A program made the translations under genes and the position numbers. From the sequence record PX418213.1: DNA of 64,000 bases. One strand, given 5' to 3'. Under the pieces are notes generated by a model. It was not told where the DNA came from, ran no database searches, and saw nothing but the letters and a program-made list of their open reading frames with translations. This DNA comes from a phage. Numbering within the stretch: position 1 is the first letter of the stretch; each line of letters starts with the position of its first letter. This document shows positions 3,842 through 49,205 of the stretch, in pieces.

Positions 3842-6628
3842 GTGTTCTCAATCCTACAAGGTCATGCAGGATTTCATCGCGATTTAGCCACAGGCAATTG
3901 GCGAGAAGTTAAAGCAGAAGACTATCTTTTTGCTAAAAGATTTTCCTCAAAGCATCCTGAAGGTAAACCAGCTTCAATGCCCTTCAAGTTTGATGTAATT
4001 GATGAAGTTGATCCTCAAACCCTAGTAGAAATGCTTCCTCTTATGAGACGTTTAACGTCTGACCCTCATATCGTTGCGGTACGAGGTCGATGTCTTGCAC
4101 CTAAAAATAATGTGCGACGTAAGAAGGGCAACTTTAATATATCTAACCCAAGTCATATAATTGCAATGGACGTGGATGGTATTGTAGATACAGGTGGTTG
4201 TAACAAGTTTGATCTTGTTGGCATGGCTCGACATATTATTAGAATGTTAAATAGTATTAGTGAGGATATGTTTCCTCTTGATGCAGGGTTTATTGCTCAT
4301 GCATCGTCTTCGGCTGGACTAAAACCAGGTATCCGAATGCACTTAATACTAGAATCTAATGTTAAAGTAACTCAGGGTCAAATCAAATTCTTATTTACAT
4401 CTATCAACGAAAGTAGTAGACAAAAGTATGGCTTTGATATTGCCGACTTAGCCTATTACTCTTCCGTACAGCTCCATTACTTTGCAGATCCGTTATTTAT
4501 CGATGGTATAGTAGATCCGTTTAAAGCGGAGGGTGCTTCACGTCTGGTATTTGTTAAGGGTTCTAAAGTAAATTTACCCAATAATCTGGTTGACTATGAA
4601 ACAACTAGGGGTGAGTTTAAAGAGGAGTTTTACTCTTTACTCGATCAAATTAAAGGTAAAAAAGCTGCCTCTGATAAAGTAGAGGAAACTATCAGCGAAC
4701 TAGAAGAAGCTGAGGATGGAGTGTATCTACGTATCATACCTAAACTCTATCACAGAGCTTTAGAGGATGGTGTTGACTTTGCATGGCTAGAAAAAGAAAT
4801 CCGTCCAGCCTTATCAGAGTATATTGCAACTAAAGATAATAGTCGTAATATTCAAGATTACTTTAATAACGGTCGTAAACAGGCTCTGAAAGCATTTGTT
4901 AATAATTCTAAACGTGATATACCGGATGTTTTAAAAGGTATTCCACTTAAAAAACTAGAAACTAATTCTCTAGAAACTGATAACTTCTTGAAATTAAATA
5001 CTGTACCACCAGAAGGTTATATGACTTTTGTAAAAGCAAGTCTAGGTACAGGTAAAACTACAGCGGTTGTGCGTTGGTTAGACTCAGGAGTTATTAAAGG
5101 TAATTTCTTAGCAATTACCAATACTAGAGCGCTAGTATCTTCAAATGCTAAGAAATTTAGTGCAGGACAATATGATAAGTCTGTAGATATGCTTAATTTT
5201 AAGCGTGGTGCTATTGACCGTATGTCCACAACTATTCACTCTTTGCATAAGTTCAAGAGTTTTATTGGTCAAATTGATGCAATCTTTATCGATGAATGTG
5301 ATGCTGTAATGAATGACCTATTATTCGCCCCGGTTGTTAAACAACGTCGTGAATGTATTCAGGTTCTTCGAGACATTCTTGCAACTGCAAAAATCATTAT
5401 ATTATCTGATGGGGATATTAGTGCAGAAACAATTGAAGCATATGGTTCTTTGATTGAGTTTGATAAACCGGTTGCATTTTATAATCATCACCGTAAAATG
5501 CTATCAAAAGCTCATGCTTATGAGTTCCCGGATGAATCCAGTATTTGGGTTGCACTTCAGACTTCTCTAGAGATGGGTGAGAAATCTATCCTAGTATCTG
5601 ACTGTGGGCCGGATGAACTGAATGAGAAGGGCATGGCATTACGTCGTAATACGGGTGCGTTAGTTAAGGAAATCCACTCAAACTCTACGTCTGATGTAGA
5701 TATTCGACGTATTCTGGATTACACAACTAATGAGCTAATTGATCAACAAATTGATTGCTTATTATGTAGTCCATCGGTAACAAGTGGTGTTGACTTTAAC
5801 TACTTTGATAACGTATTCGTTATTACTAGAACCTCAAACCAAGCGCCAAACATGCGTTTCCAAGCAATCAGGCGCGACCGTGGTGCTCAGAACATTTATT
5901 ATTTTATTGATAAATCTACGAGTGGGTTCTCCGCAGGTTCTGAGCAATATAACATTGATGAAGGTTGGCTGGAGTTAGCACAGCAATTATACGCACGTCG
6001 CAGGGAGCTGGAATCTAGAAACTATACTAGTACTCTACGTTATTACTTGCTTGATCAGGGTGCAACTATTGATATTTTCAGTGAAAGCTGGGGAAATATC
6101 GAAGGTGCAGGAAAAGAGTATACGGAAGAGCGAATCAAAGCTATTTTGTATTCAACTCCTGATTATTGTGCTCCACGCCATGCAGATGCGTATGAAGCTA
6201 AACTACTTCTTGTTCGCTATTACCATCTTGAGTCTATTAAAGATGTAACAGTTGAGCATGTTGAACAATATATCAAAGATAAACCGAATGATCGAGCTGC
6301 ATTCTTCCATAAGATGCACGAGATGTTCTGGGAAGATATTAAGAAGTGTTCAAATGTCACTATCAAACCCTTTATAGAAGCTCTGAAAGGTAAGAAGAAA
6401 GATTTCTTCCTTAAAACAGGTCAGAGTGCTAACCCAAAATATGCGAGAATGTATCTTGGTATGATGGGTATTGGCAAGGATATGAACACGGAGAATATTG
6501 TAGACTGGTACAGAACCTATTGTAAAATCGAGTGTATGCCAATCCCCCTAAAATTCATGACAGAGGAAGAGAAGGCCATGGCAGAAGAAGTAATGTCCGA
6601 ACTTGGAGCAACCAATGAAGATACATAA
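3842..6628 (+). CDS. large helicase-domain protein (possible replication initiator or origin-binding helicase)
   Basis: Walker A ASLGTGKTT and DExD-like box IFIDECDAV; start refined to in-frame GTG 3842 preceded by AGGAG at 7-nt spacing (ORF track starts at 3764). Confidence 0.5.
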   Translation: MFSILQGHAGFHRDLATGNWREVKAEDYLFAKRFSSKHPEGKPASMPFKFDVIDEVDPQTLVEMLPLMRRLTSDPHIVAVRGRCLAPKNNVRRKKGNFNISNPSHIIAMDVDGIVDTGGCNKFDLVGMARHIIRMLNSISEDMFPLDAGFIAHASSSAGLKPGIRMHLILESNVKVTQGQIKFLFTSINESSRQKYGFDIADLAYYSSVQLHYFADPLFIDGIVDPFKAEGASRLVFVKGSKVNLPNNLVDYETTRGEFKEEFYSLLDQIKGKKAASDKVEETISELEEAEDGVYLRIIPKLYHRALEDGVDFAWLEKEIRPALSEYIATKDNSRNIQDYFNNGRKQALKAFVNNSKRDIPDVLKGIPLKKLETNSLETDNFLKLNTVPPEGYMTFVKASLGTGKTTAVVRWLDSGVIKGNFLAITNTRALVSSNAKKFSAGQYDKSVDMLNFKRGAIDRMSTTIHSLHKFKSFIGQIDAIFIDECDAVMNDLLFAPVVKQRRECIQVLRDILATAKIIILSDGDISAETIEAYGSLIEFDKPVAFYNHHRKMLSKAHAYEFPDESSIWVALQTSLEMGEKSILVSDCGPDELNEKGMALRRNTGALVKEIHSNSTSDVDIRRILDYTTNELIDQQIDCLLCSPSVTSGVDFNYFDNVFVITRTSNQAPNMRFQAIRRDRGAQNIYYFIDKSTSGFSAGSEQYNIDEGWLELAQQLYARRRELESRNYTSTLRYYLLDQGATIDIFSESWGNIEGAGKEYTEERIKAILYSTPDYCAPRHADAYEAKLLLVRYYHLESIKDVTVEHVEQYIKDKPNDRAAFFHKMHEMFWEDIKKCSNVTIKPFIEALKGKKKDFFLKTGQSANPKYARMYLGMMGIGKDMNTENIVDWYRTYCKIECMPIPLKFMTEEEKAMAEEVMSELGATNEDT

Positions 6629-7133
6629 ACCAATGCCTCCTATGGCATTTATCCTGAAAAAGCTTAAGTATGATGAAAGTACTGGGGACTTAATTTGGTT
6701 ATCTGGCCCAAGGAAGGGAAGGGTAGCGGGCTCCAAAATGAAAACTGGGAGACAGTTAGAGTTTACTATAAAGGGAGAGCGGACAGCTTACTTAGCCCAT
6801 AGAATAATCTGGTTTATAAAAACAGGCGAAGATCCTGGGGATAAAACTATCGACCACAAAGACGGGGATAACTTAAACAACTTGTGGGATAATTTACGTA
6901 AGGCTACCTACTCCGAAAATGGAAAGAATAAGAAGTGTTCTACTAATTCTACCGGATTCACTGGAGTTGTAAAACGAGGTAATAGGTATATGGCCTACGC
7001 TTACTGTGATGGAAAGCAGCATATTTTTGGTAGACGAGATACCCCGGAAGAAGCCCATCAGCTATACCTTATGGGAGTTAAAGAACTGTTTGGTGAATTT
7101 AATCCCTCGGAGAGATATGACAGTGAAGAATAA
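6615..7133 (+). CDS. HNH homing endonuclease with AP2-type DNA-binding domain
   Basis: IDHKDGDNLNNLWDNLR (HNH His-Asn-Asn core) followed by GFTGVVKRGNRYMAYAY (AP2-like); ATG 6615 preceded by GGAG. Confidence 0.6.
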   Translation: MKIHKPMPPMAFILKKLKYDESTGDLIWLSGPRKGRVAGSKMKTGRQLEFTIKGERTAYLAHRIIWFIKTGEDPGDKTIDHKDGDNLNNLWDNLRKATYSENGKNKKCSTNSTGFTGVVKRGNRYMAYAYCDGKQHIFGRRDTPEEAHQLYLMGVKELFGEFNPSERYDSEE

Positions 7134-7350
7134 AAAATGGGAAACAAGGAAGTTCCCAGTAAAAGAACGTAAAGTTCCTGCTTACAACACTTCGGAAAAG
7201 CTATGTAGGGTGGTTCCTGCTAGACTAGCTGGCATCCCTAACATATCCGAGTGGTTACTTAAACAACGGAAAACAAACGTGTCTCTTCGCATCGGCTTTG
7301 AGTTAGATAAAGTCTATGCTGAACTTGCTTCTTTGCTCAAGGAATCGTAA
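7117..7350 (+). CDS. hypothetical small protein (about 77 aa)
   Basis: In-frame ATG 7117 preceded by GGAGAG; the ORF track version starts at 7006 inside the HNH gene. Confidence 0.35.
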   Translation: MTVKNKKWETRKFPVKERKVPAYNTSEKLCRVVPARLAGIPNISEWLLKQRKTNVSLRIGFELDKVYAELASLLKES

Positions 7351-12728: not shown

Positions 12729-14201
12729 ATGACCTTGTTTAACGTGCAAGCTGTAGTGTTGAAGATGCTTCTAGCTTCCGAACAGAAGCAAATAGCATTG
12801 GAAACATTCTCAAAACTGCATAAAGATCATTTTAATGACGCTTTCTCCTCAATTTACCAAGCCGTCCAGAATTATTATAAAAAATATAACACAATGCCGT
12901 CCATTGACGCACTTATGCTTGAAGCTAATAGGAACGCCCGCCTTTCTCAAGCTCTAGTCGTCTTAGCTAACACTCAAATTCCAGAAGTGAGCATGGAACA
13001 GGCACTTGAAGTCCTAGAAGCCGAATATACACAGGATTTATTCCTGAAGCTTCTAGAAACAGACGTGCTTCAAGATTTAACAATGCTGGATCAGGGAGAA
13101 ATTCTCAACCGAGTTGCCTCCCTTCACTTAAAATTAGAAGAGAAAGTAACGAATACTGGAAAAGTATTCAACGCAGATAACATGCGTATTTTCCAGAGAG
13201 AAGAAGATACCAAACTGAACTTAATCGCTCTTGGTATTTGTAATGAGTTCGACGCTCAAATTGGTTTAGCTCGCACAGAAACGTTACTGCTTGGTGGTTG
13301 GCGTGGTACTGGTAAATCCATTATCTGTTCAAACATACAGGTTCAGCAATATTTGAATGGGGATATTGCTCCATACTTCTCAATTGAGATGAAAGAACAT
13401 GAGGTATTTAGACGTAATCTAGCCATGTTAGCTGGTGTATCAGCATTAGCAATGCGTAATAATACTCTAGAAGGTGCAGCTCTGTTGAGATTAGCCAGAA
13501 CTAGAGCTAGAATGTTTAATGGTGGTGAAGAGCTTTTCGATAACTTCGTTAAACAGTACACAATGGCTAAGATGAGTGATTTCTACGATATGGAGAGTAA
13601 GCTAATAGAAGGATATGAGCTACATACTCCTATGATTATTGTTTATGACCCTGAGCTGTCTATTACAACAGTTGACGTAGAATTAAATAAATTAGTTGCT
13701 AGATATGGTGATAAAGTTACAGTAGCTTTACTGGACTATATTAACCAAACCCGACTTCCAGACTCTAAAACCATTGATATGTATGACTGGAAAGAACAGA
13801 TGGTTGTCAGCTCGTCTTTCAAATCTATCTGCCAGAAACATAACGTGGCTGGTGTAGCTCCTTACCAGATCGATCAAGATGGTAGAACACGTATGTCAAA
13901 GGGGATTCTTGATTCCGCAGACATGGCTGCTAATCTTAATGCTGCAAAAGCTGATAATGGTCAAGGTGCTATTATGTTTGACTTCGTTAAGACTCGTTCT
14001 TCTGATAGCGTGAAGTTTATGCCTAAAATGAACTGGGAAACTCTGCGAATGGATAACACTACCAACCTAGCAATGGAAGATATATCTCAAATGGAAGCTG
14101 AGTTCGTTATCCCTATTGAGAAGGATAAGCCGGCTCAACCTAAACGTGCTAAGAAAGACAAAACTGAAAATTCAACAGGTGAACAGGCCAGCGATATATG
14201 A
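12729..14201 (+). CDS. DnaB-like replicative helicase
   Basis: Walker A GGWRGTGKS in the C-terminal RecA-like domain; ORF track start 12678 lies inside the upstream terminator, so ATG 12729 (or in-frame TTG 12735 with better AAGGAG spacing) is more likely. Confidence 0.6.
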   Translation: MTLFNVQAVVLKMLLASEQKQIALETFSKLHKDHFNDAFSSIYQAVQNYYKKYNTMPSIDALMLEANRNARLSQALVVLANTQIPEVSMEQALEVLEAEYTQDLFLKLLETDVLQDLTMLDQGEILNRVASLHLKLEEKVTNTGKVFNADNMRIFQREEDTKLNLIALGICNEFDAQIGLARTETLLLGGWRGTGKSIICSNIQVQQYLNGDIAPYFSIEMKEHEVFRRNLAMLAGVSALAMRNNTLEGAALLRLARTRARMFNGGEELFDNFVKQYTMAKMSDFYDMESKLIEGYELHTPMIIVYDPELSITTVDVELNKLVARYGDKVTVALLDYINQTRLPDSKTIDMYDWKEQMVVSSSFKSICQKHNVAGVAPYQIDQDGRTRMSKGILDSADMAANLNAAKADNGQGAIMFDFVKTRSSDSVKFMPKMNWETLRMDNTTNLAMEDISQMEAEFVIPIEKDKPAQPKRAKKDKTENSTGEQASDI

Positions 14202-15088
14202 GTAGAATAACAGAACTACTTGATCTGAAAGGCATTGAATATAAAGACACAGGTGGGGACATCCTCATCTGTTGTCTCAATCCAGATCATGACGATAAAC
14301 ACCCAAGTTTGCGTATTGATCCTGAAACAGGTATTATGCACTGCTTGAGTTGTGGCTTCGGTAAAGGTATACCGAGCATTTACCATTATTTTAATGAGAC
14401 TCAGTACCGACAGTCCCCAAGACTATCGCAGGTACGCAAAAAGATTTCAGAGATTAGGAATGGATCAACGAATCTTGCAATTCCTGAATCTGCTTACCTT
14501 TTCGAAGGTGATTTCCGAGGTATAAGTTCTAAGACCTTGAAGAAATATTTTGCTTTCCAACACCAAGCAGACTGGGAAGGCAGAATTGTATTCCCAATCA
14601 CAGATGCTGTTGGACGCAATATCCTATTTTTGGGTCGTTCTATAAACAGTTCTGCCCCTCCTAAATACTTAGTAAAACCAAAACAAGTTTCACCACCTAT
14701 TTTCCCTGTACGATATAATACTCCAGTTCTTATTCTAGTTGAAGGTATCTTTGATATGCTGAACCTAGAGGATAATGGTATAGACTATGCTTCTTGCTGC
14801 TTTGGTACACATCAGTTTACTTCGGATAACATTGCAGATAAGTTCAGCCCTTATATTATTGCTGGTGTAAAAGTTGTTGTTATCTTACTAGATAATGATG
14901 CTTCTGGTAATAAGGCTGCACAAGCATTGGCCAAATTAATTCGCACAAAAACGCGTTTAACACCTGTAGTTGCTAACTTTCTCCTGCCTGAAGGCAAAGA
15001 TCCGGGTGATTTAAACAAAGATGAAATTGATATGTTAGCAAAACGTATTGAAATTTTAGTTGCTGAATCGCTTAAAGATTTGGTATAA
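14198..15088 (+). CDS. DnaG-like DNA primase (zinc-binding plus TOPRIM)
   Basis: CCLNPDHDDKHPSL...HCLSCGFG zinc-binding motif; TOPRIM residues LVEG and LDNDASG; ATG overlaps the helicase stop (ATGA). Confidence 0.65.
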   Translation: MSRITELLDLKGIEYKDTGGDILICCLNPDHDDKHPSLRIDPETGIMHCLSCGFGKGIPSIYHYFNETQYRQSPRLSQVRKKISEIRNGSTNLAIPESAYLFEGDFRGISSKTLKKYFAFQHQADWEGRIVFPITDAVGRNILFLGRSINSSAPPKYLVKPKQVSPPIFPVRYNTPVLILVEGIFDMLNLEDNGIDYASCCFGTHQFTSDNIADKFSPYIIAGVKVVVILLDNDASGNKAAQALAKLIRTKTRLTPVVANFLLPEGKDPGDLNKDEIDMLAKRIEILVAESLKDLV

Positions 15089-15150
15089 TATATTGGTAAG
15101 TTAGAGAAGAAACACTGAAGTTATACTTACTTACCAAGAGGAGATTAAAT

Positions 15151-20859: not shown

Positions 20860-20864
20860 AACCA

Positions 20865-21842
20865 ATGAGAATATTATTTAGTGCTGATCATCATATCAAA
20901 CTAGGACAAGATAAAGTTCCAAAGGAATGGCAGAAGCGTCGCTTCCTGATGCTAGGAGAACGGTTAAATGATATATTCCATAATCATAACTGTGATCTTC
21001 ATATTGCTGGTGGTGATATACTTGATGTTGCCGACCCGTCGTCAGAAGAAATAGAACTGCTTGAACAGTTCATGTCAAGACTCGACCATCCAGGTAAAAT
21101 CTTTACTGGAAATCATGAAATGTTAACTAAAACCATTTCATGTCTATATCATTATGCAGGAGTTATTAATAAAGTAACGAGTGGGAAGTGGGAAGTAGTT
21201 ACCAAACCATATCGTTCCCCTGAATTTGATATTGTTCCGTATGATGAAATCCATAAGTCTAAGTGGAAACCATCTGAATCAAAACTATGTTTCACGCATG
21301 TTCGTGGTGAAATCCCTCCACATGTAAAACCAGAAATTGATCTAACTAAGTATAACTGTTATGATACTGTAATTGCTGGCGATTTACATTCTTATACTAA
21401 TAGCCAGACTATCGGGTCTACTAGACTCCTCTACCCAGGATCCCCATTAACTACATCGTTTCATAGAGAACGCACAAAAGGTACAAATGGTTGTTTTATC
21501 ATTGATACCGACACATTAAAAGTAGAATGGATTGAACTCGGTGATTTACCACAACTGATTCGTAAAACAATCGGAGCTGGTGAAGAGATGGAACCTAGTG
21601 ATTATGATCGTGTAGTCTATGAAGTTACTGGTGACGTTGTTCAATTAAAGTCTATTAAAGACTCTGATTTATTAGATAAGAAGATTAACCATCGAGTTAC
21701 TAAAGATGCTAAGTTAAATCTTGTTGATCTTGATATGTTAGGTGAACTTGAACTTTACTTCCGTGAAGTCGAGAAGCTATCTCAAGGCGACATTGATAGA
21801 ATCTTGGCTAGAGCTGCGAAATATGTCAAAGATTACAATTAA
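20865..21842 (+). CDS. SbcD/Mre11-like metallophosphoesterase nuclease
   Basis: Calcineurin-like motifs ADHH, GGDILD, GNHE. Confidence 0.65.
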   Translation: MRILFSADHHIKLGQDKVPKEWQKRRFLMLGERLNDIFHNHNCDLHIAGGDILDVADPSSEEIELLEQFMSRLDHPGKIFTGNHEMLTKTISCLYHYAGVINKVTSGKWEVVTKPYRSPEFDIVPYDEIHKSKWKPSESKLCFTHVRGEIPPHVKPEIDLTKYNCYDTVIAGDLHSYTNSQTIGSTRLLYPGSPLTTSFHRERTKGTNGCFIIDTDTLKVEWIELGDLPQLIRKTIGAGEEMEPSDYDRVVYEVTGDVVQLKSIKDSDLLDKKINHRVTKDAKLNLVDLDMLGELELYFREVEKLSQGDIDRILARAAKYVKDYN

Positions 21843-35911: not shown

Positions 35912-38900
35912 TTACATATTACCAAGAGATTTAAGGGTGGATCCATTCTCATTAAGAGCCAGTTCCACGGCATCTCTTAAAGCAGTGCTGTTATTCGATG
36001 CAAAATCTCTAAAGCTAGCAGCATCCATTGTGCTAATATTCAGAATGATTGGTCTTCCAGAGGTAGTCTTTGATCCATCGGAAAGCTGATCATTAGGTGT
36101 GGCTTTCATAGGAACCATAGGAGTTACTACTTCGGTACCGTGCTCACCCATTTGATAGCTAACTCCAGGGTACATCATACCACCCTCAGCACGCGGAACA
36201 AATGAGTTGGCATTACCAATACCCTTATCACCACGTAAGTAGGATAATTCTCCTGAACTAGCTTGCATAGATACATCAATGTTCTTCTGTCGCTCACCTA
36301 AAGTTAGGTACTGAGTAGTATCTGCTCCAGAATCTGCAATAGAAGACATACCAGATGCAGAAGATGCTTGAGCAAGAGCTAAGGCACCTGCCAAACCTGC
36401 CGCCACCATCAAAGGAATAGAGAACGGGTATGGTACAGCTGTTGCCGCTTGCATTACTGCTACTGCTGTCTGGATAATAATTTGTTTCTTAGCTGCATCT
36501 TGCTGAATTTTTAACTTTTCAGCTTCTAACTTTTTCAGTTTAGCTTTAGATGCTTCAGATTTACCATCTCGTTTCTGTTCTGCTGCAATAGCCTGGTCAA
36601 TCGCACTAACCTGCTGACTAGCACTATACTGAATCACAGAAGATACAGCTTGCATACCTGCTGCGATCGTAGAAGTAGTATCTAAAGACCCCATGGAGAA
36701 CTGAATCATAGCATTGGTTAAATTACCCATGCTTTGAGCCACAGCAGTTGCTTCGGAGTTTAGCTCAGATAACTTAGAGATTGCCTGATCATAAGAAGCC
36801 ATTCTATTTCCCATATCAGCAAAATCTTTGTCTTTTCCAGATAGTCCAGTTGTAGGGGTATACACAGCACCTAAAGAAGACCCAACAGAAGCTTGCATTT
36901 GAGCATTGCGTTGTGCTGTTAAAGCTGACATCTGAGCCCTTGTCTTAGCTATTTCAGCATTCCAGCGCATTTGCTCGTTAGCATTACCTTTGGTAAGTTC
37001 TTTCATCTGAGTATAAAAATCTAACTGCATTTCCATTTTTTGCATTTCCCCTGCCAGAGGGAACATGGAAGTTAGAGTATTTTCAAAGGCTTCTTGCCTT
37101 TTACTGGTCATTTCAGCTTGCTGGTCCTGACGGAATTTCCATATTTCACGCTCAATTTGGGCTTGAGAACGTCTAGACTGTTCGGCCTCTTTCTGTTTAT
37201 CAGCTTGTTTTGTATACCATTCGTACTTCTCTTTTTCAATGGTCAATTCAAGATTTAACTGTGCTAGACGATACTGAGTATCTGTCATAGTACGGTTATT
37301 TAAGAGAGCTATCTCACGATCTACACCCAGAATTTTATCAGTATAATCCTTAACCTTCTTCTGAGCTTCCATACCCTGATTAGTAAGTTTAAGTTTCTCC
37401 AGCTGAATTTTTTCAATTTCTTTCTCAACAGCTTTATTTCCCTGGTTTGTTTGAAGTACACGGCGTAGGGCAGCTTCTTGCTCTTCTAACTGTTGTAACT
37501 CTAAACGTCTACCTGCTTCTTGTGCTTTTTCTTTATCCTTAGTTTGGTTGTATACATCAGCTATCTTCTGTTGAACTGCTAACTGATTTTTAGTTTCATT
37601 ACCAGTTAGTTTAACATACTCAGATAAGGCCTGAGACGCAGTTTTCATTTCAGACAGAGTGTTATAGCCTAGGTTAAGATTTTTAACATACTCATCTGCA
37701 CTTTTACCAGTACCTAGAGATAGAGATTCTATGTTTTTTATAGCATCTGCTAAAGTAGCACTAGTCTTAGCAGCAGTATCTGTATTCTGAGCAACGTTCT
37801 GTATATCATTAGCTAAGTCACTAGCAGTTTTCTTAGTCTGATTATATGCTTTTTGTTGTTCAGTTAGTCCTTTTAATACAGTAGAGTTAAAATCGTATAC
37901 AGCATCAGGATCAGTAGTATCTCTCTGTAGATTAATCTGTTTCTGAAACTCTGGATTAGCCTTTGCAGCAGCAGCCCCAGCAGCTTGATACGCTGATTTC
38001 CAAGCAGTAAGATTCTCTGTAGAATCATTAACTTCTTTATCCAAGCGTGCTACTTGTAGTCCCATAGCGGCAGTTTCTGCTACAAATTGTTTATTAGCTT
38101 CCGAAGCACCTGCTGCTGCAAGACCAACAGGAATACCTTCACCAACTTGACGTATAGCTAGTTTTGTGTAGAAATCTGCTTGTTCCATTCGTTTATCGAA
38201 CTCAGATTTTAGCTTATTACGCTTATCAAGAGATTCCTTATACATATCTAGAGCTTTATTATAGCCTTCTTCAGAAGCGGCCAAACTTAAAGCAACAGCA
38301 CCAACGTTGGTAGGATCTATCTGTCTATTAGTTTTTTCTTGAGCCCTAGCTGCTTCAGCAGATACAGAAGCCTGAGAAGTATAAAATACTGTGTTGATAG
38401 CATCAATTACTGGTCCTAAGTACTTAGCAGCAGCTTGTTGTACTGTTCTTAGTGCAGCATCTGCGTTAGCAGCAAACTGCTCCCACGGAGTAGCACGTAA
38501 AACTTCATCTAAGTAACCAAAACGTTTAGTAGATTCTGCTATAACAGCATTAGCATATGCTTGCTGTTTCTGGAAAGTGGTAAGACTATTAATGTTATAA
38601 GTTATGCCTGTGTTTGCAGCATTTAACTGTTTAACGTAATCAGCATAAGCATCGTTAAGACGAATAGTAACACCAAGTTCATCCAGAAGTTCGATTTCTT
38701 GTTTAGATACACCCTTAATTACACGGTTAAGTGCATCAGTCATATCAACACCAAGAACAGCGGCAGCACGACGAGCTACTAAACCAAATTTATTAAGTTG
38801 TTCAGCATCAAATCCATAAGCGGATGCTGAGGATGCTTGCCTCATAGCTTCTTCAAAAGAGATTGCATAGCCAGCTGCCTCTTGTAGTGATCTAGCAAGA

Positions 38901-39595
38901 GACTGAACAGGAGTACCTGTCTGAGTACCAACTATAACACCAAATTTTTCTAGACGATTTAACTGATCACCTAGTTTAAGCTGTTCGAATGCAGATTGCA
39001 AAACGAAGATGTTAGAAGCAATAGCAGCGTATAATAAAGGTAAACCACCACCAACTTTAGCCATTGCCGCAAAATCACGAGTTGCACCACGTGCTGAGCC
39101 AGAAGTATTACCAATAGCTCTAGAAGCTCTACCAGCGGCACCAGCAGTATCATTAAAACCTCTAGCTGTACCGCCTAAGACTCTATTGGTGTCATACAAT
39201 CTATCTTGAACTTTCTCTGTTGCAGCTGCAACATCATTACCCATTGCTTTAACAGATCTAGAAACTCCATCGAATCCAATCTCTAGTTTATCTGTTACTT
39301 CAATAAGTTGGATAGCAAGGTCATCTAACTTAGCCCCTATATCATTTATAGATTTAGTAACACTAAGCATACCTCGGCTTGCTTGCATTTTAGTAAGACT
39401 TTTCGCTGCTCTATCCGCTGCCCTCTCAATGGAGTAAAGGGTTTTGGGCATTTTACCTAACTGTTCATTTGTCAGTTCGGAAGCAGCAGCAGCGTTTTCC
39501 AACGCATCAGATACGTTTTCAATAGACTTTGCAGTACGAGTTGCCCCCTTCTGCTTAACGTCTATTAGTAATTCTCGTATTAGCTTATCAGTCAT
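35912..39595 (-). CDS. tail tape measure protein
   Basis: 1227 aa, largely alpha-helical and Ala/Gln-rich; follows the chaperone pair. Confidence 0.8.
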   Translation of the reverse strand: MTDKLIRELLIDVKQKGATRTAKSIENVSDALENAAAASELTNEQLGKMPKTLYSIERAADRAAKSLTKMQASRGMLSVTKSINDIGAKLDDLAIQLIEVTDKLEIGFDGVSRSVKAMGNDVAAATEKVQDRLYDTNRVLGGTARGFNDTAGAAGRASRAIGNTSGSARGATRDFAAMAKVGGGLPLLYAAIASNIFVLQSAFEQLKLGDQLNRLEKFGVIVGTQTGTPVQSLARSLQEAAGYAISFEEAMRQASSASAYGFDAEQLNKFGLVARRAAAVLGVDMTDALNRVIKGVSKQEIELLDELGVTIRLNDAYADYVKQLNAANTGITYNINSLTTFQKQQAYANAVIAESTKRFGYLDEVLRATPWEQFAANADAALRTVQQAAAKYLGPVIDAINTVFYTSQASVSAEAARAQEKTNRQIDPTNVGAVALSLAASEEGYNKALDMYKESLDKRNKLKSEFDKRMEQADFYTKLAIRQVGEGIPVGLAAAGASEANKQFVAETAAMGLQVARLDKEVNDSTENLTAWKSAYQAAGAAAAKANPEFQKQINLQRDTTDPDAVYDFNSTVLKGLTEQQKAYNQTKKTASDLANDIQNVAQNTDTAAKTSATLADAIKNIESLSLGTGKSADEYVKNLNLGYNTLSEMKTASQALSEYVKLTGNETKNQLAVQQKIADVYNQTKDKEKAQEAGRRLELQQLEEQEAALRRVLQTNQGNKAVEKEIEKIQLEKLKLTNQGMEAQKKVKDYTDKILGVDREIALLNNRTMTDTQYRLAQLNLELTIEKEKYEWYTKQADKQKEAEQSRRSQAQIEREIWKFRQDQQAEMTSKRQEAFENTLTSMFPLAGEMQKMEMQLDFYTQMKELTKGNANEQMRWNAEIAKTRAQMSALTAQRNAQMQASVGSSLGAVYTPTTGLSGKDKDFADMGNRMASYDQAISKLSELNSEATAVAQSMGNLTNAMIQFSMGSLDTTSTIAAGMQAVSSVIQYSASQQVSAIDQAIAAEQKRDGKSEASKAKLKKLEAEKLKIQQDAAKKQIIIQTAVAVMQAATAVPYPFSIPLMVAAGLAGALALAQASSASGMSSIADSGADTTQYLTLGERQKNIDVSMQASSGELSYLRGDKGIGNANSFVPRAEGGMMYPGVSYQMGEHGTEVVTPMVPMKATPNDQLSDGSKTTSGRPIILNISTMDAASFRDFASNNSTALRDAVELALNENGSTLKSLGNM

Positions 39596-44610: not shown

Positions 44611-44638
44611 AATAAAAAAGGAGAGCCGAAGCTCTCCT
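44611..44638 (-). terminator. intrinsic terminator after the major capsid gene
   Basis: Stem aggagagc / gctctcct, loop cgaa, followed on the minus strand by TTTTTTATTGGGAAAA. Confidence 0.6.
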
Positions 44639-44658: not shown

Positions 44659-45351
44659 TTAAACGGCAGCGTAAGCACCAGATACAACGCCATTATTAAA
44701 GTAACGTTGCAGGTTAACACGCTGAGTAACGTAGTATGCATCACGCTGTTTACCAGCTTGGCGCTCACGTTCAACAGTAACAGCACGCTGACGTGGCATT
44801 ACGAAGTTATCTTTATAAACAATAACTGCGAACTCTTTATCAGCCGCTTTAGCTGGGAAGTACTCAGAAACTACAACCGGCAGACCGTAAATACGACCAA
44901 CTTGACCTTGCAGTTTAACAGCATCATTACCAACCTGGGAAACATCCTGCCATTCTTCATCTTCCAGCAGATCGTAGTAAGCATCCATAGATACAATCAG
45001 TACCAGTTTGCTCAGCTTCAGGCCATGACGGCCCAGTTTACGACGCAGTTTAGAGATAGTTTTAGCAGTTACCATAACAGAACCATCAGCTTTAGCTTCG
45101 GTAGTAACTTTAGCACTATCTTCACTAGCAAGAGTCAGCAGACCTTTCGGTTTACCAGAACCATCACCAGTCATGAAAGCTTCTTCGATAGAAACAGCAT
45201 GTGCTTCAATCAGACGCTTACGCAGCAGCGGCAGCAGGGAGAAGATTGCATCTTCTTCAGTTTCATCAGTAATAAAGGACTTAGCAGCCAGTTTGTAGGT
45301 CTTAAACGTCACGAATGATACGCTGAGAGAAGATAGTTTCATAGCTTTCAC
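44659..45351 (-). CDS. major capsid protein (HK97 fold), downstream reading-frame segment
   Basis: MCP-like C-terminal sequence GLPVVVSEYF; begins in a different frame from the upstream delta-domain ORF. Confidence 0.55.
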   Translation of the reverse strand: MKAMKLSSLSVSFVTFKTYKLAAKSFITDETEEDAIFSLLPLLRKRLIEAHAVSIEEAFMTGDGSGKPKGLLTLASEDSAKVTTEAKADGSVMVTAKTISKLRRKLGRHGLKLSKLVLIVSMDAYYDLLEDEEWQDVSQVGNDAVKLQGQVGRIYGLPVVVSEYFPAKAADKEFAVIVYKDNFVMPRQRAVTVERERQAGKQRDAYYVTQRVNLQRYFNNGVVSGAYAAV

Positions 45352-45862
45352 TAGAAACTTCTACAGAAGAAGACTGATTCACTGCTTTAAGGTGATTCTG
45401 ACCATGTTCAGTTTCGAATACGCCTTTTTCCATTACATAGGACAACAGAACCAGTTTTTCTACTTCGTCTTCAAAGTTTTCCTGAGTACCGTACAGTGCT
45501 TTAGCAACACTATCACCAACGAAGGAACGACCTTCACGAGCTGTTAGCAGAGATTTGATTTCGTCCTGAAGACCAACAATAGTTTCCTGCTGTTTTTCTA
45601 CGGTTTGTGCAAACAGTTCTGCACTCTTCTTAGATTTCTCATCCAGCGACTTAACCAGTTCCAGAGCCTCTTCCAGACGCTTACGATCTTCGCCAACTGC
45701 TTTAGAAACCAGGTCATTCATACGAGCCAGTTCTTTTTCTTCCTGCTCTTTACGCATACGTTCAGCTTCCTGAGCTTTCTGAGCAGCGGTCAGACCTTCC
45801 AGAGATTTAGCCAGATCACCCAGACCAAGTTCTTCTTTCAGCTTATTAATATCAATAGTCAT
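45302..45862 (-). CDS. major capsid protein precursor, N-terminal scaffolding (delta) domain segment
   Basis: Coiled-coil-rich 186 aa ORF directly after the protease gene; ends at TAA 45302 in a frame offset by one from the downstream MCP segment. Confidence 0.5.
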   Translation of the reverse strand: MTIDINKLKEELGLGDLAKSLEGLTAAQKAQEAERMRKEQEEKELARMNDLVSKAVGEDRKRLEEALELVKSLDEKSKKSAELFAQTVEKQQETIVGLQDEIKSLLTAREGRSFVGDSVAKALYGTQENFEDEVEKLVLLSYVMEKGVFETEHGQNHLKAVNQSSSVEVSSESYETIFSQRIIRDV

Positions 45863-46515: not shown

Positions 46516-47007
46516 TTAGCCTCCAACACCTGGATTAACCGTTACTGTACATGCAGTAGAAGGTTTACTAACTTTCTTGCTATCTGTAACCGTTACTTTA
46601 TAGACTCCAGAATCATCAGTAGCTGCTGCAGGCTTAGTATAGGTAGCTCCTGAAGCCTCTGGAATAGGAGAACCATCTTTAGTCCATGCATAAGTATATG
46701 GACCAGTACCACCGGTTGCAGTAACAGAAAGTGTTAATGCTGCTCCCTCTTCAACTGACATGCTAGCAGTTAAATCTTTAGAAAGAGTTAATGGTGGGGC
46801 CGGTGGAGCAGAAGGAACTGCTTTACCATATGCCTCTACAAATTTCTTCCATACTTTGCGGTTAGTATGCGCAGATGAAAGTCCTAGTTCTCTACGCAGA
46901 AAAGCATAGCTAGGAACATATTTATGCGCAGCAACCGTAGCAAAGAAGATATGAGATTCTGGTAGTTTTTCACCAAAAATGGTCTTTAGACCACTATAAT
47001 CAATCAT
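46516..47007 (-). CDS. capsid decoration protein with C-terminal Ig-like domain
   Basis: 163 aa; C-terminal LTLSVTATGGTGPYTYAWTKDGSPIPEASGATYTK is Ig-like. Confidence 0.6.
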   Translation of the reverse strand: MIDYSGLKTIFGEKLPESHIFFATVAAHKYVPSYAFLRRELGLSSAHTNRKVWKKFVEAYGKAVPSAPPAPPLTLSKDLTASMSVEEGAALTLSVTATGGTGPYTYAWTKDGSPIPEASGATYTKPAAATDDSGVYKVTVTDSKKVSKPSTACTVTVNPGVGG

Positions 47008-48104
47008 TCTTTATCTCCCTCGGTGGAACCTTGAGGTCTACCACCTTCTTGACCGGATACGCCTGTTGCAGAACCAGCGACGTTAGCAGGAATACGAATC
47101 TTATTCATCTGCTCATCATCTAAAGGCTCAAGGTTCAGCTCTAAACGAGCTTCGTTACCAGTTATAATACCATTATTAACCAATGAGGTTAAATGTTTAG
47201 CCTCAGATTCTTTATCTGGTGTTAATGCAGCTACTTCCTTAGTATTAGGAGTAATCTTATAACCAAAAAAGAAAGTAAGAGAACTAGTCAGCTTGTTCAG
47301 CATAGGAATGATAGTCATGTAATAGAACAGTTCGATATTTGGTCGAATGTTCGCATTATTACCACCATCAAGTAGCACTTGCGGAACACCAAAGGCTAGA
47401 CAGATGGATTTATTAAATCCTTCAATGTCTTCCTTAAAGTCTATCAGGACAGAAGACTGACCCGTACTAGGATTATAATCGAGTTGTAATTCTTCTTGTT
47501 TACGCTCACGCAATTTCTTGTTCAGGATTTCATCCGTCTCAAGAATAAGACCAATCACGGTTCCGTTATCGAGGAATTTCTCTTTAAAGTTGAGCATCTT
47601 GGAACGCTTCTCAAGAGAATCAATAACAGTAGCAACACGAGATTGTCCAGAAATTTGAGAATTTGTGCCACACACGTAACTGTTATCCTTTATAAAGATA
47701 ATCTCATCTACGCGATAGTCTATCTGATTATTAAATATAAATTTTTTGATAAACTTATTGGCATCTGCCTCTACTTGCATTAGTGCAGCAGGGACATGGT
47801 AAAGTGCTGTGCCATCCCAATAGATGTATGCACAACCTTCAAAAAGTAGGTCAGTGACTACAAGTCTACGGAATGTGCTTATATCCATGAATGGATTAGG
47901 TCGTACATTTAAGAGAGTAGTATAAGAACACTCCGCCGCACTATCTATAACCATATTAGCAGTTCTATTGAGAATCTCAATTTTACTGTAGGCTTGTCCA
48001 GTGGTAAAAGGCTTACGGTTAGTGCGATGACTAACTGGTTCCATGTCTCTTATAATACGTTGACCCGGATTTAGCTTTTCAGTAATCCAGCTTTTAAAAC
48101 CCAT
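47004..48104 (-). CDS. portal protein
   Basis: Position upstream of the protease; ICLAFGVPQVLLDGG resembles the conserved portal core. Confidence 0.55.
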   Translation of the reverse strand: MGFKSWITEKLNPGQRIIRDMEPVSHRTNRKPFTTGQAYSKIEILNRTANMVIDSAAECSYTTLLNVRPNPFMDISTFRRLVVTDLLFEGCAYIYWDGTALYHVPAALMQVEADANKFIKKFIFNNQIDYRVDEIIFIKDNSYVCGTNSQISGQSRVATVIDSLEKRSKMLNFKEKFLDNGTVIGLILETDEILNKKLRERKQEELQLDYNPSTGQSSVLIDFKEDIEGFNKSICLAFGVPQVLLDGGNNANIRPNIELFYYMTIIPMLNKLTSSLTFFFGYKITPNTKEVAALTPDKESEAKHLTSLVNNGIITGNEARLELNLEPLDDEQMNKIRIPANVAGSATGVSGQEGGRPQGSTEGDKE

Positions 48105-48556
48105 TATAAGAACCTTGCGAATCCTGATTTTGTTTCAGTCTTGACTTGTGTCTTTTCTTGAGGATTCTGTAATTTGTCTTTCTGCTTTTGAACCCACACT
48201 TTTTGCTTATTAGCAGAAAATAAAGGAGGTTCTTTTGTATAAACCTTATGTAATAATTGGTGGTGATGCTGGCAGAGTGTTACTACTTCTTCAATTAGCT
48301 CTCGCTCATATTGCTTATAGAATGCTTCCCTATTAGATAGGGTAATCTCCTCATCAGTGAAATCTAATTGATTTTCTTTAGCGAATTTTTTAACTAATTG
48401 AGAAATAGTAAAATAATGATGTAACTCTAGGTCATCATTACTACCACAGATTGCACAGCAATCACCCCTCCTATACCTAGATTTAATGCCGTCACGCATA
48501 ATCGATATGGCGTCACGTTTGAATTTTACATTGGTGGCCATGTTCCTCCAATCCAA
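48104..48556 (-). CDS. HNH endonuclease
   Basis: CCAICGS...LELHH...LCQHHHQLLH zinc-binding HNH signature. Confidence 0.65.
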   Translation of the reverse strand: MDWRNMATNVKFKRDAISIMRDGIKSRYRRGDCCAICGSNDDLELHHYFTISQLVKKFAKENQLDFTDEEITLSNREAFYKQYERELIEEVVTLCQHHHQLLHKVYTKEPPLFSANKQKVWVQKQKDKLQNPQEKTQVKTETKSGFARFL

Positions 48557-49205
48557 AGTTACTTAGAAAGACTACTATATCCTCTGGAGCAACATTAAAA
48601 AATTCTGTGCTTCCTGTAAATTTTGAAAACCCACAGTTTTTATTATAGTACTCTCTATGGACTTCTTTTTCTAAATCTAGAGCAGTTTCTCTATCAGGTA
48701 GATGATATGTGGTAAACAAGTATAAATCTGAAAATCCAGACTCTCTTTTAACCTCGTTCAACCGCTTCTCGGGGTATAAACTTATACCTACTTTAGTACC
48801 CATAGAGGAGGACATGATATAGAGAAACCCGCCATTATCCCATTTAAGGGAGCAATAAGGACATCTTCTACCCTGCGTCAACCCATCTAAGGCAATATAG
48901 CATTCATGACCATTGTTACAGCGTAGATGCAGTTTTGTTTTTGCATTAGTATAGTTATTTAATAGTGTATACCCTATACTGGATACCCTATTATTAACTT
49001 CATCTAGCGATATATTATTAGGAGCGCAATGTGGGCAACTCCTTCCCATATGAAGTATAGAATGCGGCGTTGCTTCCCAAACGTGTGCTCTTTGGCACAT
49101 AAATAATGTTTTTGTACGTTGGTTTACATATTCACCGACAATTCGGATTCCACGATCAGCTAATCTAGTATTTATATCTTTTATTGTTAGCTTTTGTCGA
49201 CCCAT
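48513..49205 (-). CDS. GIY-YIG-like nuclease (possibly T5orf172 family) with duplicated N-terminal zinc-ribbon motifs
   Basis: Two repeats of the (I/Y)xLxxxYxNxxTKxxxxC...H...CPxC(A/S) pattern, then GFLYIMSS...KVGIS resembling GIY...YIG. Confidence 0.4.
   Translation of the reverse strand: MGRQKLTIKDINTRLADRGIRIVGEYVNQRTKTLFMCQRAHVWEATPHSILHMGRSCPHCAPNNISLDEVNNRVSSIGYTLLNNYTNAKTKLHLRCNNGHECYIALDGLTQGRRCPYCSLKWDNGGFLYIMSSSMGTKVGISLYPEKRLNEVKRESGFSDLYLFTTYHLPDRETALDLEKEVHREYYNKNCGFSKFTGSTEFFNVAPEDIVVFLSNFGLEEHGHQCKIQT

Follow-up and report, generated by a model that had tools for sequence, protein, structure and literature searches.

Comparison with related phages shows, at the level of sequence, that the split major capsid gene in the window (the whole 64,000-nt stretch of phage DNA analysed here, from record PX418213.1) is an ordinary pb8-type gene in the form of a deletion allele, not a device for recoding. 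A single 173-nt block is absent from the capsid gene, and two further blocks are absent from the nearby portal gene. The most economical origin of all three gaps is probably the loss of segments during construction of the sequence.

The window belongs to the genome of a T5-like (Tequintavirus) phage, whose head module, encoded on the minus strand, comprises in order a terminase, a T5orf172-type gene, a nicking endonuclease, the portal, the pb10 decoration protein, the prohead protease, the capsid gene, a terminator, and a head-completion protein. The preliminary description of this DNA had proposed that a scaffold-domain open reading frame (ORF) and an HK97-fold ORF are pieces of one precursor lying in different frames, a proposal borne out by alignment. 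The frame limits given there, with an upstream stop at 45302, a TAG closing the downstream frame before about 45360, and a downstream frame at +1 relative to the upstream one, were confirmed by direct translation; read directly and in translation, the upstream stop is the TAA at 45304-45302. In a profile search, the 230-aa downstream ORF matched Pfam PF05065 (Phage_capsid) over profile positions 67-272 of 280 (E=4.5e-18). A chance ORF pattern is excluded by the 98-100% identity of both pieces to an unbroken gene in relatives. The features of the locus are as follows, with the absent DNA given in the coordinates of L013, the contig closest to the window:

45302..45862, minus strand: scaffold-domain ORF of 186 aa, equivalent to residues 1-185 of the T5-type capsid precursor, then Val and a stop.
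44659..45351, minus strand: HK97-fold ORF of 230 aa, equivalent to precursor residues 244-458 from its residue 16 (FKTYKLAAK...).
45308..45862, minus strand: capsid precursor codons 1-185, encoding the scaffolding (delta) domain (1-159) and the first 26 mature residues (start of the N-arm).
45307..45308, minus strand: deletion junction, ...CGTGAC/GTTTAAG... (slash at the break), where 173 nt are absent (L013 7701-7873).
45302..45307, minus strand: GTT TAA (Val and stop), made by the junction; the upstream ORF ends two codons past the break.
44659..45306, minus strand: codons 244-458 and the stop, in the +1 frame, encoding the P-domain spine helix, the A-domain, and the C-terminus; this part gives the PF05065 match.
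45307..45351, minus strand: out-of-frame lead-in of the 230-aa ORF, VKAMKLSSLSVSFVT, a non-capsid sequence overlapping the upstream ORF.
45361..45363, minus strand: TAG shutting the downstream frame on its upstream side, from direct translation.
44614..44637, minus strand: intrinsic terminator hairpin (GGAGAGC-TTCG-GCTCTCC and a T run) 3' of the capsid gene, intact.

A terminator is annotated at the place corresponding to this hairpin in Escherichia phage VAH1. VAH1 and T5_ev219 each carry one 1377-nt capsid gene, and in an alignment of the window with these two phages and Salmonella phage SP3 the window showed one clean 173-nt gap, SP3 itself having a 71-nt gap nested within it. Multiple alignment with VAH1 and T5_ev219 revealed no other indel in the capsid gene. 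A deletion of 3n+2 nt had been among the causes named beforehand, and exactly 173 nt are missing relative to these genes. In the 458-codon gene, the absent block begins at the first base of codon 186 and extends to the second base of codon 243. Since 173 equals 3×57+2, the 3' part of the gene falls into the +1 frame; and as the junction itself creates GTT-TAA, the 5' ORF ends there. A repeat check at the flanks found no direct or inverted repeats bracketing the gap, which rules out repeat slippage and hairpin-mediated deletion as its cause.

We then related the missing codons to the solved structure of the T5 capsid protein. Cryo-EM places the pb8 N-arm at residues 164-191, the P-domain at 192-205, 245-306, and 407-451, and the E-loop at 206-244 (PMC11313276). 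By these limits, the absent residues 186-243 take in the last part of the N-arm, the first P-domain strand, and virtually the entire E-loop, in agreement with the earlier remark that too few residues separate the scaffold domain from the spine helix. Correspondingly, the intact protein matches Pfam profile positions 9-272 and the window fragment only 67-272, positions 9-66 being lost. The T5 precursor length, put at about 458 aa in the preliminary description, is indeed that of PDB entries 8zvi and 8ho3. The intact homolog from L013 matched 8zvi (E=2.8e-276), 8ho3, and also the mature T5 chain 5tjt/6okb, which corresponds to residues 160-458. An intact mature capsid protein would have 299 residues (~32 kDa) and include peptides from LQKELVVGALFEELPMSSK.

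Measured against T5 pb8 (an HK97 fold with an N-terminal delta domain; PDB 5TJT, 6OKB, 8ZVI; PF05065), the locus has the same gene order of protease, capsid, terminator, and head-completion gene, and its residues 1-185 and 244-458 are 98-100% identical to those of relatives. The delta domain of ~159 residues fused to the capsid domain is present (codons 1-185), as are the spine helix, the A-domain, and the C-terminus. It differs in that codons 186-243 are gone, the frame is broken, and no intact precursor is possible: a complete N-arm, first P-domain strand, and E-loop (164-244) are lacking, as is the single frame of ~458 codons that spans 1377 nt in relatives. As the preliminary description had estimated, about 400 aa can be encoded here (185+1+214), so a protein rejoined by any means would have ~400 residues and lack elements of the solved T5 capsid model. 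The capsid gene is a member of the T5 pb8 family by descent which, as written, has neither a complete N-arm and E-loop nor a single frame.

Next, we surveyed phage records and sequence collections for the gapped arrangement. A megablast search with a 1701-nt query against 50,697 phage records returned 546 matching records, in 434 of which one match spanned most of the query; among the matches listed, all needed at least two pieces and spanned 1875 nt, not 1701. For the capsid gene itself, 435 of 450 matching phage records covered at least 80% of its length, and each of the matches listed required two pieces, with a span of 1377 nt. A 200-nt query centred on the junction matched 427 phage records, none of them in one piece. 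Degenerate junction patterns gave no match in IMG/VR viral, JGI metagenome, or GTDB genome contigs; a positive control with the intact site found 14 viral contigs, and this control covered the viral contigs only. Likewise, a 300-nt junction query had no match in plasmids or complete E. coli genomes.

At the protein level, the exact 186-aa and 227/230-aa capsid fragments and the 366-aa portal protein encoded in the window were absent among ~15 billion proteins, a set in which the neighbouring protease, pb10, and head-completion proteins all had exact matches. Eighteen close-relative contigs, eight with the exact pb10 and ten with the exact head-completion protein, carry genes for a 458-aa capsid protein and a 405-aa portal protein. 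L013, L015, and L016 are 99.4% identical to the window and intact. Of ten large window proteins, seven lack an exact copy, and contigs bearing exact copies of window proteins are only ~95% mosaics. The preliminary description had allowed for related phages sharing the two-frame layout; none was found in the phage records or the contig collections.

The orphaned part of the gene bears no sign of decay. L013, which comes from an ENA metagenome assembly, showed 99.4% identity over 2136 nt without an indel. The out-of-frame downstream fragment is identical to the intact L013 gene at 645 of 645 nt, and the upstream part differs from it at 2 positions in 555 nt, located in two codons. Comparison of the capsid gene with more distant relatives revealed a predominance of synonymous changes; with L010, for instance, the counts are 17 synonymous and 3 non-synonymous. 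The identity of the downstream fragment to L013 and the dominance of synonymous changes rule out a decayed pseudogene. Given this absence of decay in an orphaned fragment, the capsid lesion either arose extremely recently or has no biological origin.

Across the 64 kb, no gene other than the capsid gene is split between frames, as judged by comparison with VAH1, SP3, and close-relative contigs, the other frame flags being VAH1's own frameshifts or antisense ORFs. A generally error-ridden assembly is thereby ruled out. Block lesions are nevertheless not confined to the capsid gene: together with the capsid gap, two gaps in the portal gene, which lies ~2 kb away, fall within 2.7 kb:

47004..48104, minus strand: portal gene, 366 codons versus 405 in relatives.
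47918..47919, minus strand: portal gap 1, 60 nt absent (L013 4973-5032), removing residues 63-82 in the wing domain (limits from PMC11313276).
47442..47444, minus strand: portal gap 2, 57 nt absent (L013 5509-5565), removing residues 242-260; its position is ambiguous by one T.

Outside these two in-frame gaps, the window portal protein is 100% identical to that of L013. Its score against portal profile PF04860 is 131.8 bits with the gaps, as opposed to 169.8 bits for the intact protein. The wing and clip assignments were made by transferring the domain limits of T5 pb7, in its 403-residue numbering, to the 405-codon portal; if that numbering suits the longer gene, residues 242-260 map to the clip domain (PMC11313276). 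Among phage records, 442 match the portal region, and in 24 of the 25 matches listed three pieces spanning 1368 nt are needed, the exception being SP3. The portal junctions were found in no viral contig besides SP3's own IMG/VR copy; for the 60-nt junction, the metagenome and genome contig collections likewise gave no match.

The exception deserves closer description. Salmonella phage SP3 (MG387042.1; NC_048001.1 in RefSeq, taxon Tequintavirus SP3) is represented by a record titled 'partial genome'. In its portal gene, 59 and 56 nt are missing at the two positions where the window lacks 60 and 57 nt; the boundaries are displaced by 1 nt, and the gene is accordingly annotated in fragments. The 71-nt capsid gap of SP3, again of the form 3n+2, is nested inside the 173-nt gap of the window, and what is annotated of the SP3 capsid gene is a 597-nt stump. 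SP3 differs from the window in a fourth gap of 38 nt, located in the nicking-endonuclease gene, and in many small frameshifts that the window lacks. All four SP3 block gaps (38, 59, 56, and 71 nt) fall within the head region (L006 40355-43500).

Several observations speak against common descent of the shared portal gaps. The window and SP3 are 91-98% identical depending on the segment, and six differences lie no more than 100 nt from the 57-nt gap, with VAH1-like alleles in the window and fp01-like ones in SP3. One contig, L041, is 99.5% identical to SP3 across the portal segments flanking the gaps and is intact, so the SP3 gaps are private too. With boundaries 1 nt apart, haplotypes that differ within 11-40 nt, and an intact near-identical relative for each phage, inheritance with SP3 from a common ancestor is unlikely. 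Purely reference-guided copying from SP3 is ruled out, because the window lacks both the 38-nt gap and the 650-nt insertion of SP3 and has the T5orf172 gene that SP3 does not. Gaps that recur at these loci on different haplotypes and whose ends are not identical fit an artefact of process better than inheritance. The portal gaps and their coincidence with the SP3 loci go beyond what the preliminary description had considered, and they shift the balance towards an artefact of sequence construction. That description had ranked a deletion or frameshift allele or an assembly error above a programmed frameshift, an ordering that the 173-nt gap and the absence of its junction from relatives support.

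On this reading, a stretch without coverage would have been dropped from the consensus, or contigs would have been joined over a gap, so that the 173-nt block was lost; the same process would have cost the portal gene its 60 and 57 nt. The sequenced phage itself would then probably have an intact capsid gene and no recoding, and the cause would have to be systematic enough to strike the same loci in SP3. Three features expected of such an artefact are present here: a private lesion with near-identical intact relatives, no secondary decay, and several lethal block lesions in one record. Three lethal lesions in two essential genes, the lack of decay, the near-identical intact assemblies, and the fact that the only other gapped record is self-declared partial with many errors thus favour loss in sequence construction. 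Counting against it, the window is clean outside its three gaps, and a poor assembly would not usually be so free of scattered frameshifts. Internal deletions are rarely made by de novo assemblers in the absence of repeats, and none flank the 173-nt gap. The lengths of both portal gaps are divisible by three (a 1/9 chance), as those of a tolerated real deletion would be.

In the rival reading that survives best, the deletions are real and the window represents a defective genome: non-viable, carried as a helper-dependent or defective-interfering form in a mixed lysate or as a remnant in a bacterial culture, and generated by site cleavage and end joining. We regard this as unlikely, yet deserving serious weight, given that the sequence is clean besides the three block gaps and that both portal gaps are in frame. 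The gap ends also bear on it. A PstI site (L013 7701, in intact relatives) marks the exact start of the 173-nt gap, the 57-nt gap starts at one XbaI site (L013 5509) and ends inside the next (5563), and the 60-nt gap ends 1 nt beyond an XbaI site (L013 5026). Three to four of the six gap boundaries adjoin XbaI (TCTAGA) or PstI (CTGCAG) palindromes, and the 71-nt gap of SP3 starts at the centre of a BstBI site. In a simulation, three of six boundaries touching any 6-bp palindrome had P=0.017, so gap ends at TCTAGA and CTGCAG exceed expectation; the P of 2e-5 for XbaI and PstI only is post hoc. Furthermore, the SP3 gaps lie at the same loci on another haplotype, as a cleavage hot spot predicts, and genes of homing-endonuclease type adjoin the head module in these phages (T5orf172 and CapR matches).

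Against a defective genome stands the severity of the lesions. With the E-loop lost, an essential protein truncated, and portal residues 63-82 and 242-260 gone, such a genome could not propagate alone, and yet it must dominate the consensus. The event would have to be extremely recent, since the orphaned fragment has gained no extra mutations over its 645 nt, and the junctions occur in none of the independent assemblies searched. Nor does the arithmetic agree: loss between XbaI sites or mediated by repeats is expected to remove 54 nt, whereas the gap measures 57 nt. For the same reason, loss of a TCTAGA repeat is ruled out for portal gap 2, as it predicts 54 nt and not 57 or 56.

The palindromes at the gap ends could reflect either linker-like trimming of reads or real site-specific cleavage. 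Two motifs at gap ends, GACCTGCAG and GACTCTAGA, also occur as 9-mers in the pUC polylinker; adapter- or polylinker-like motifs as the cause of the gap ends are a suggestive idea, but a post hoc one. It is very improbable that the recurrent head-gene gaps in the two T5-like phages are all real, with a restriction or homing endonuclease cutting at TCTAGA and CTGCAG, the ends being joined, and the defective genomes persisting beside viable phage.

Recoding fares far worse. In this scenario, a +1 ribosomal frameshift at GUU-UAA-G would rejoin the frames and yield a functional capsid protein of ~400 aa, containing the junction peptide ...SQRIIRDVKTYK... and giving a mature capsid protein of ~26 kDa. 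Its attraction is that a stop codon enters the A site right after the junction and that the +1 codon, AAG, continues the capsid frame (F/V-K-T-Y-K...). The prfB (RF2) site is laid out in this way, with a stop codon in the A site and a +1 frame that continues the protein, and the two sites share a stop after a U-ending codon. They differ in that the site here lacks an upstream Shine-Dalgarno stimulator and conservation, would probably allow only poor re-pairing in the +1 frame, and is a by-product of a deletion. No AGGAGG-like run is present in the 15 nt upstream, ATCATTCGTGAC; tRNA-Val would probably re-pair poorly on UUU after a +1 slip from GUU; and the site is found in no relative searched. 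The product would also be without residues 186-243, 58 residues to which the solved T5 capsid model assigns the E-loop and a P-domain strand. Of four features considered for such a site, three (conservation, an upstream stimulator, and a complete functional product) are lacking. As to the fourth, a shift-prone P-site codon ahead of a slow A-site codon, GUU-UAA-G supplies the stop, but GUU would probably re-pair poorly to UUU. A programmed +1 frameshift is therefore all but ruled out as an explanation of the locus, and we would give it hardly any credence.

More improbable still is that the two ORFs are genuine separate scaffolding and capsid genes, the second using its own start at GTG 45351 or ATG 45342: scaffold and capsid are encoded apart in many tailed phages, for example lambda and P22, and the first ORF does stop shortly past the scaffold domain, but it retains 26 mature capsid residues, the second ORF opens with 15 out-of-frame residues and has no N-arm, E-loop, or convincing ribosome-binding site, and all listed relatives, the 99.4%-identical ones included, have the two parts fused, so that alignment and the want of a proper start rule this arrangement out.

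The locus contains no new recoding signal. If segments were lost in sequence construction, as we favour, a normal pb8-type capsid is almost certainly what the phage makes, and the split carries little biological weight. If the DNA were really as written, the phage would be unable to build capsids; should the gaps prove real, such repeated occurrence at palindromic sites would indicate site-specific cleavage acting on the head genes of T5-like phages. The practical consequences concern databases. Annotated as it stands, this record would appear to encode a truncated scaffold protein and a headless capsid fragment, together with a short portal, and scans for recoding may take the junction for a +1 frameshift site. 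The SP3 record (NC_048001) carries the same class of lesion and merits re-examination.

Beyond the gapped genes, comparison with relatives yielded a number of separate observations. Between the large terminase and nicking-endonuclease genes, a 230-aa ORF (48513-49205, minus strand) corresponds to the T5orf172/MUG113-type gene of contigs L010 and L035. Since it is absent from VAH1, SP3, and L013, it looks like a mobile insertion of homing-endonuclease type. In the VAH1 record (MK373792.1), the helicase and large terminase are each annotated in two pieces (L004 19661-21015; L005 7866-9181). These splits stem from indels of 1-2 nt relative to the window, SP3, and others, and are probably sequencing errors; the corresponding window ORFs are intact, at 450 and 438 aa.

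Whole small genes, including annotated HNH endonucleases, are present or absent relative to VAH1 and SP3 at 1375-1713, 6618-7113, 7344-7348, 14198-14201, 15079-15090, and 20864-20868, which is typical T5-like mosaicism. Finally, the tape-measure gene (35912-39595) differs in length from those of VAH1 and L031 by 27 nt, in frame, within a divergent stretch at 38113-38174. As the protein ranges from 1226 to 1236 aa among relatives, this difference looks natural and not like a lesion.
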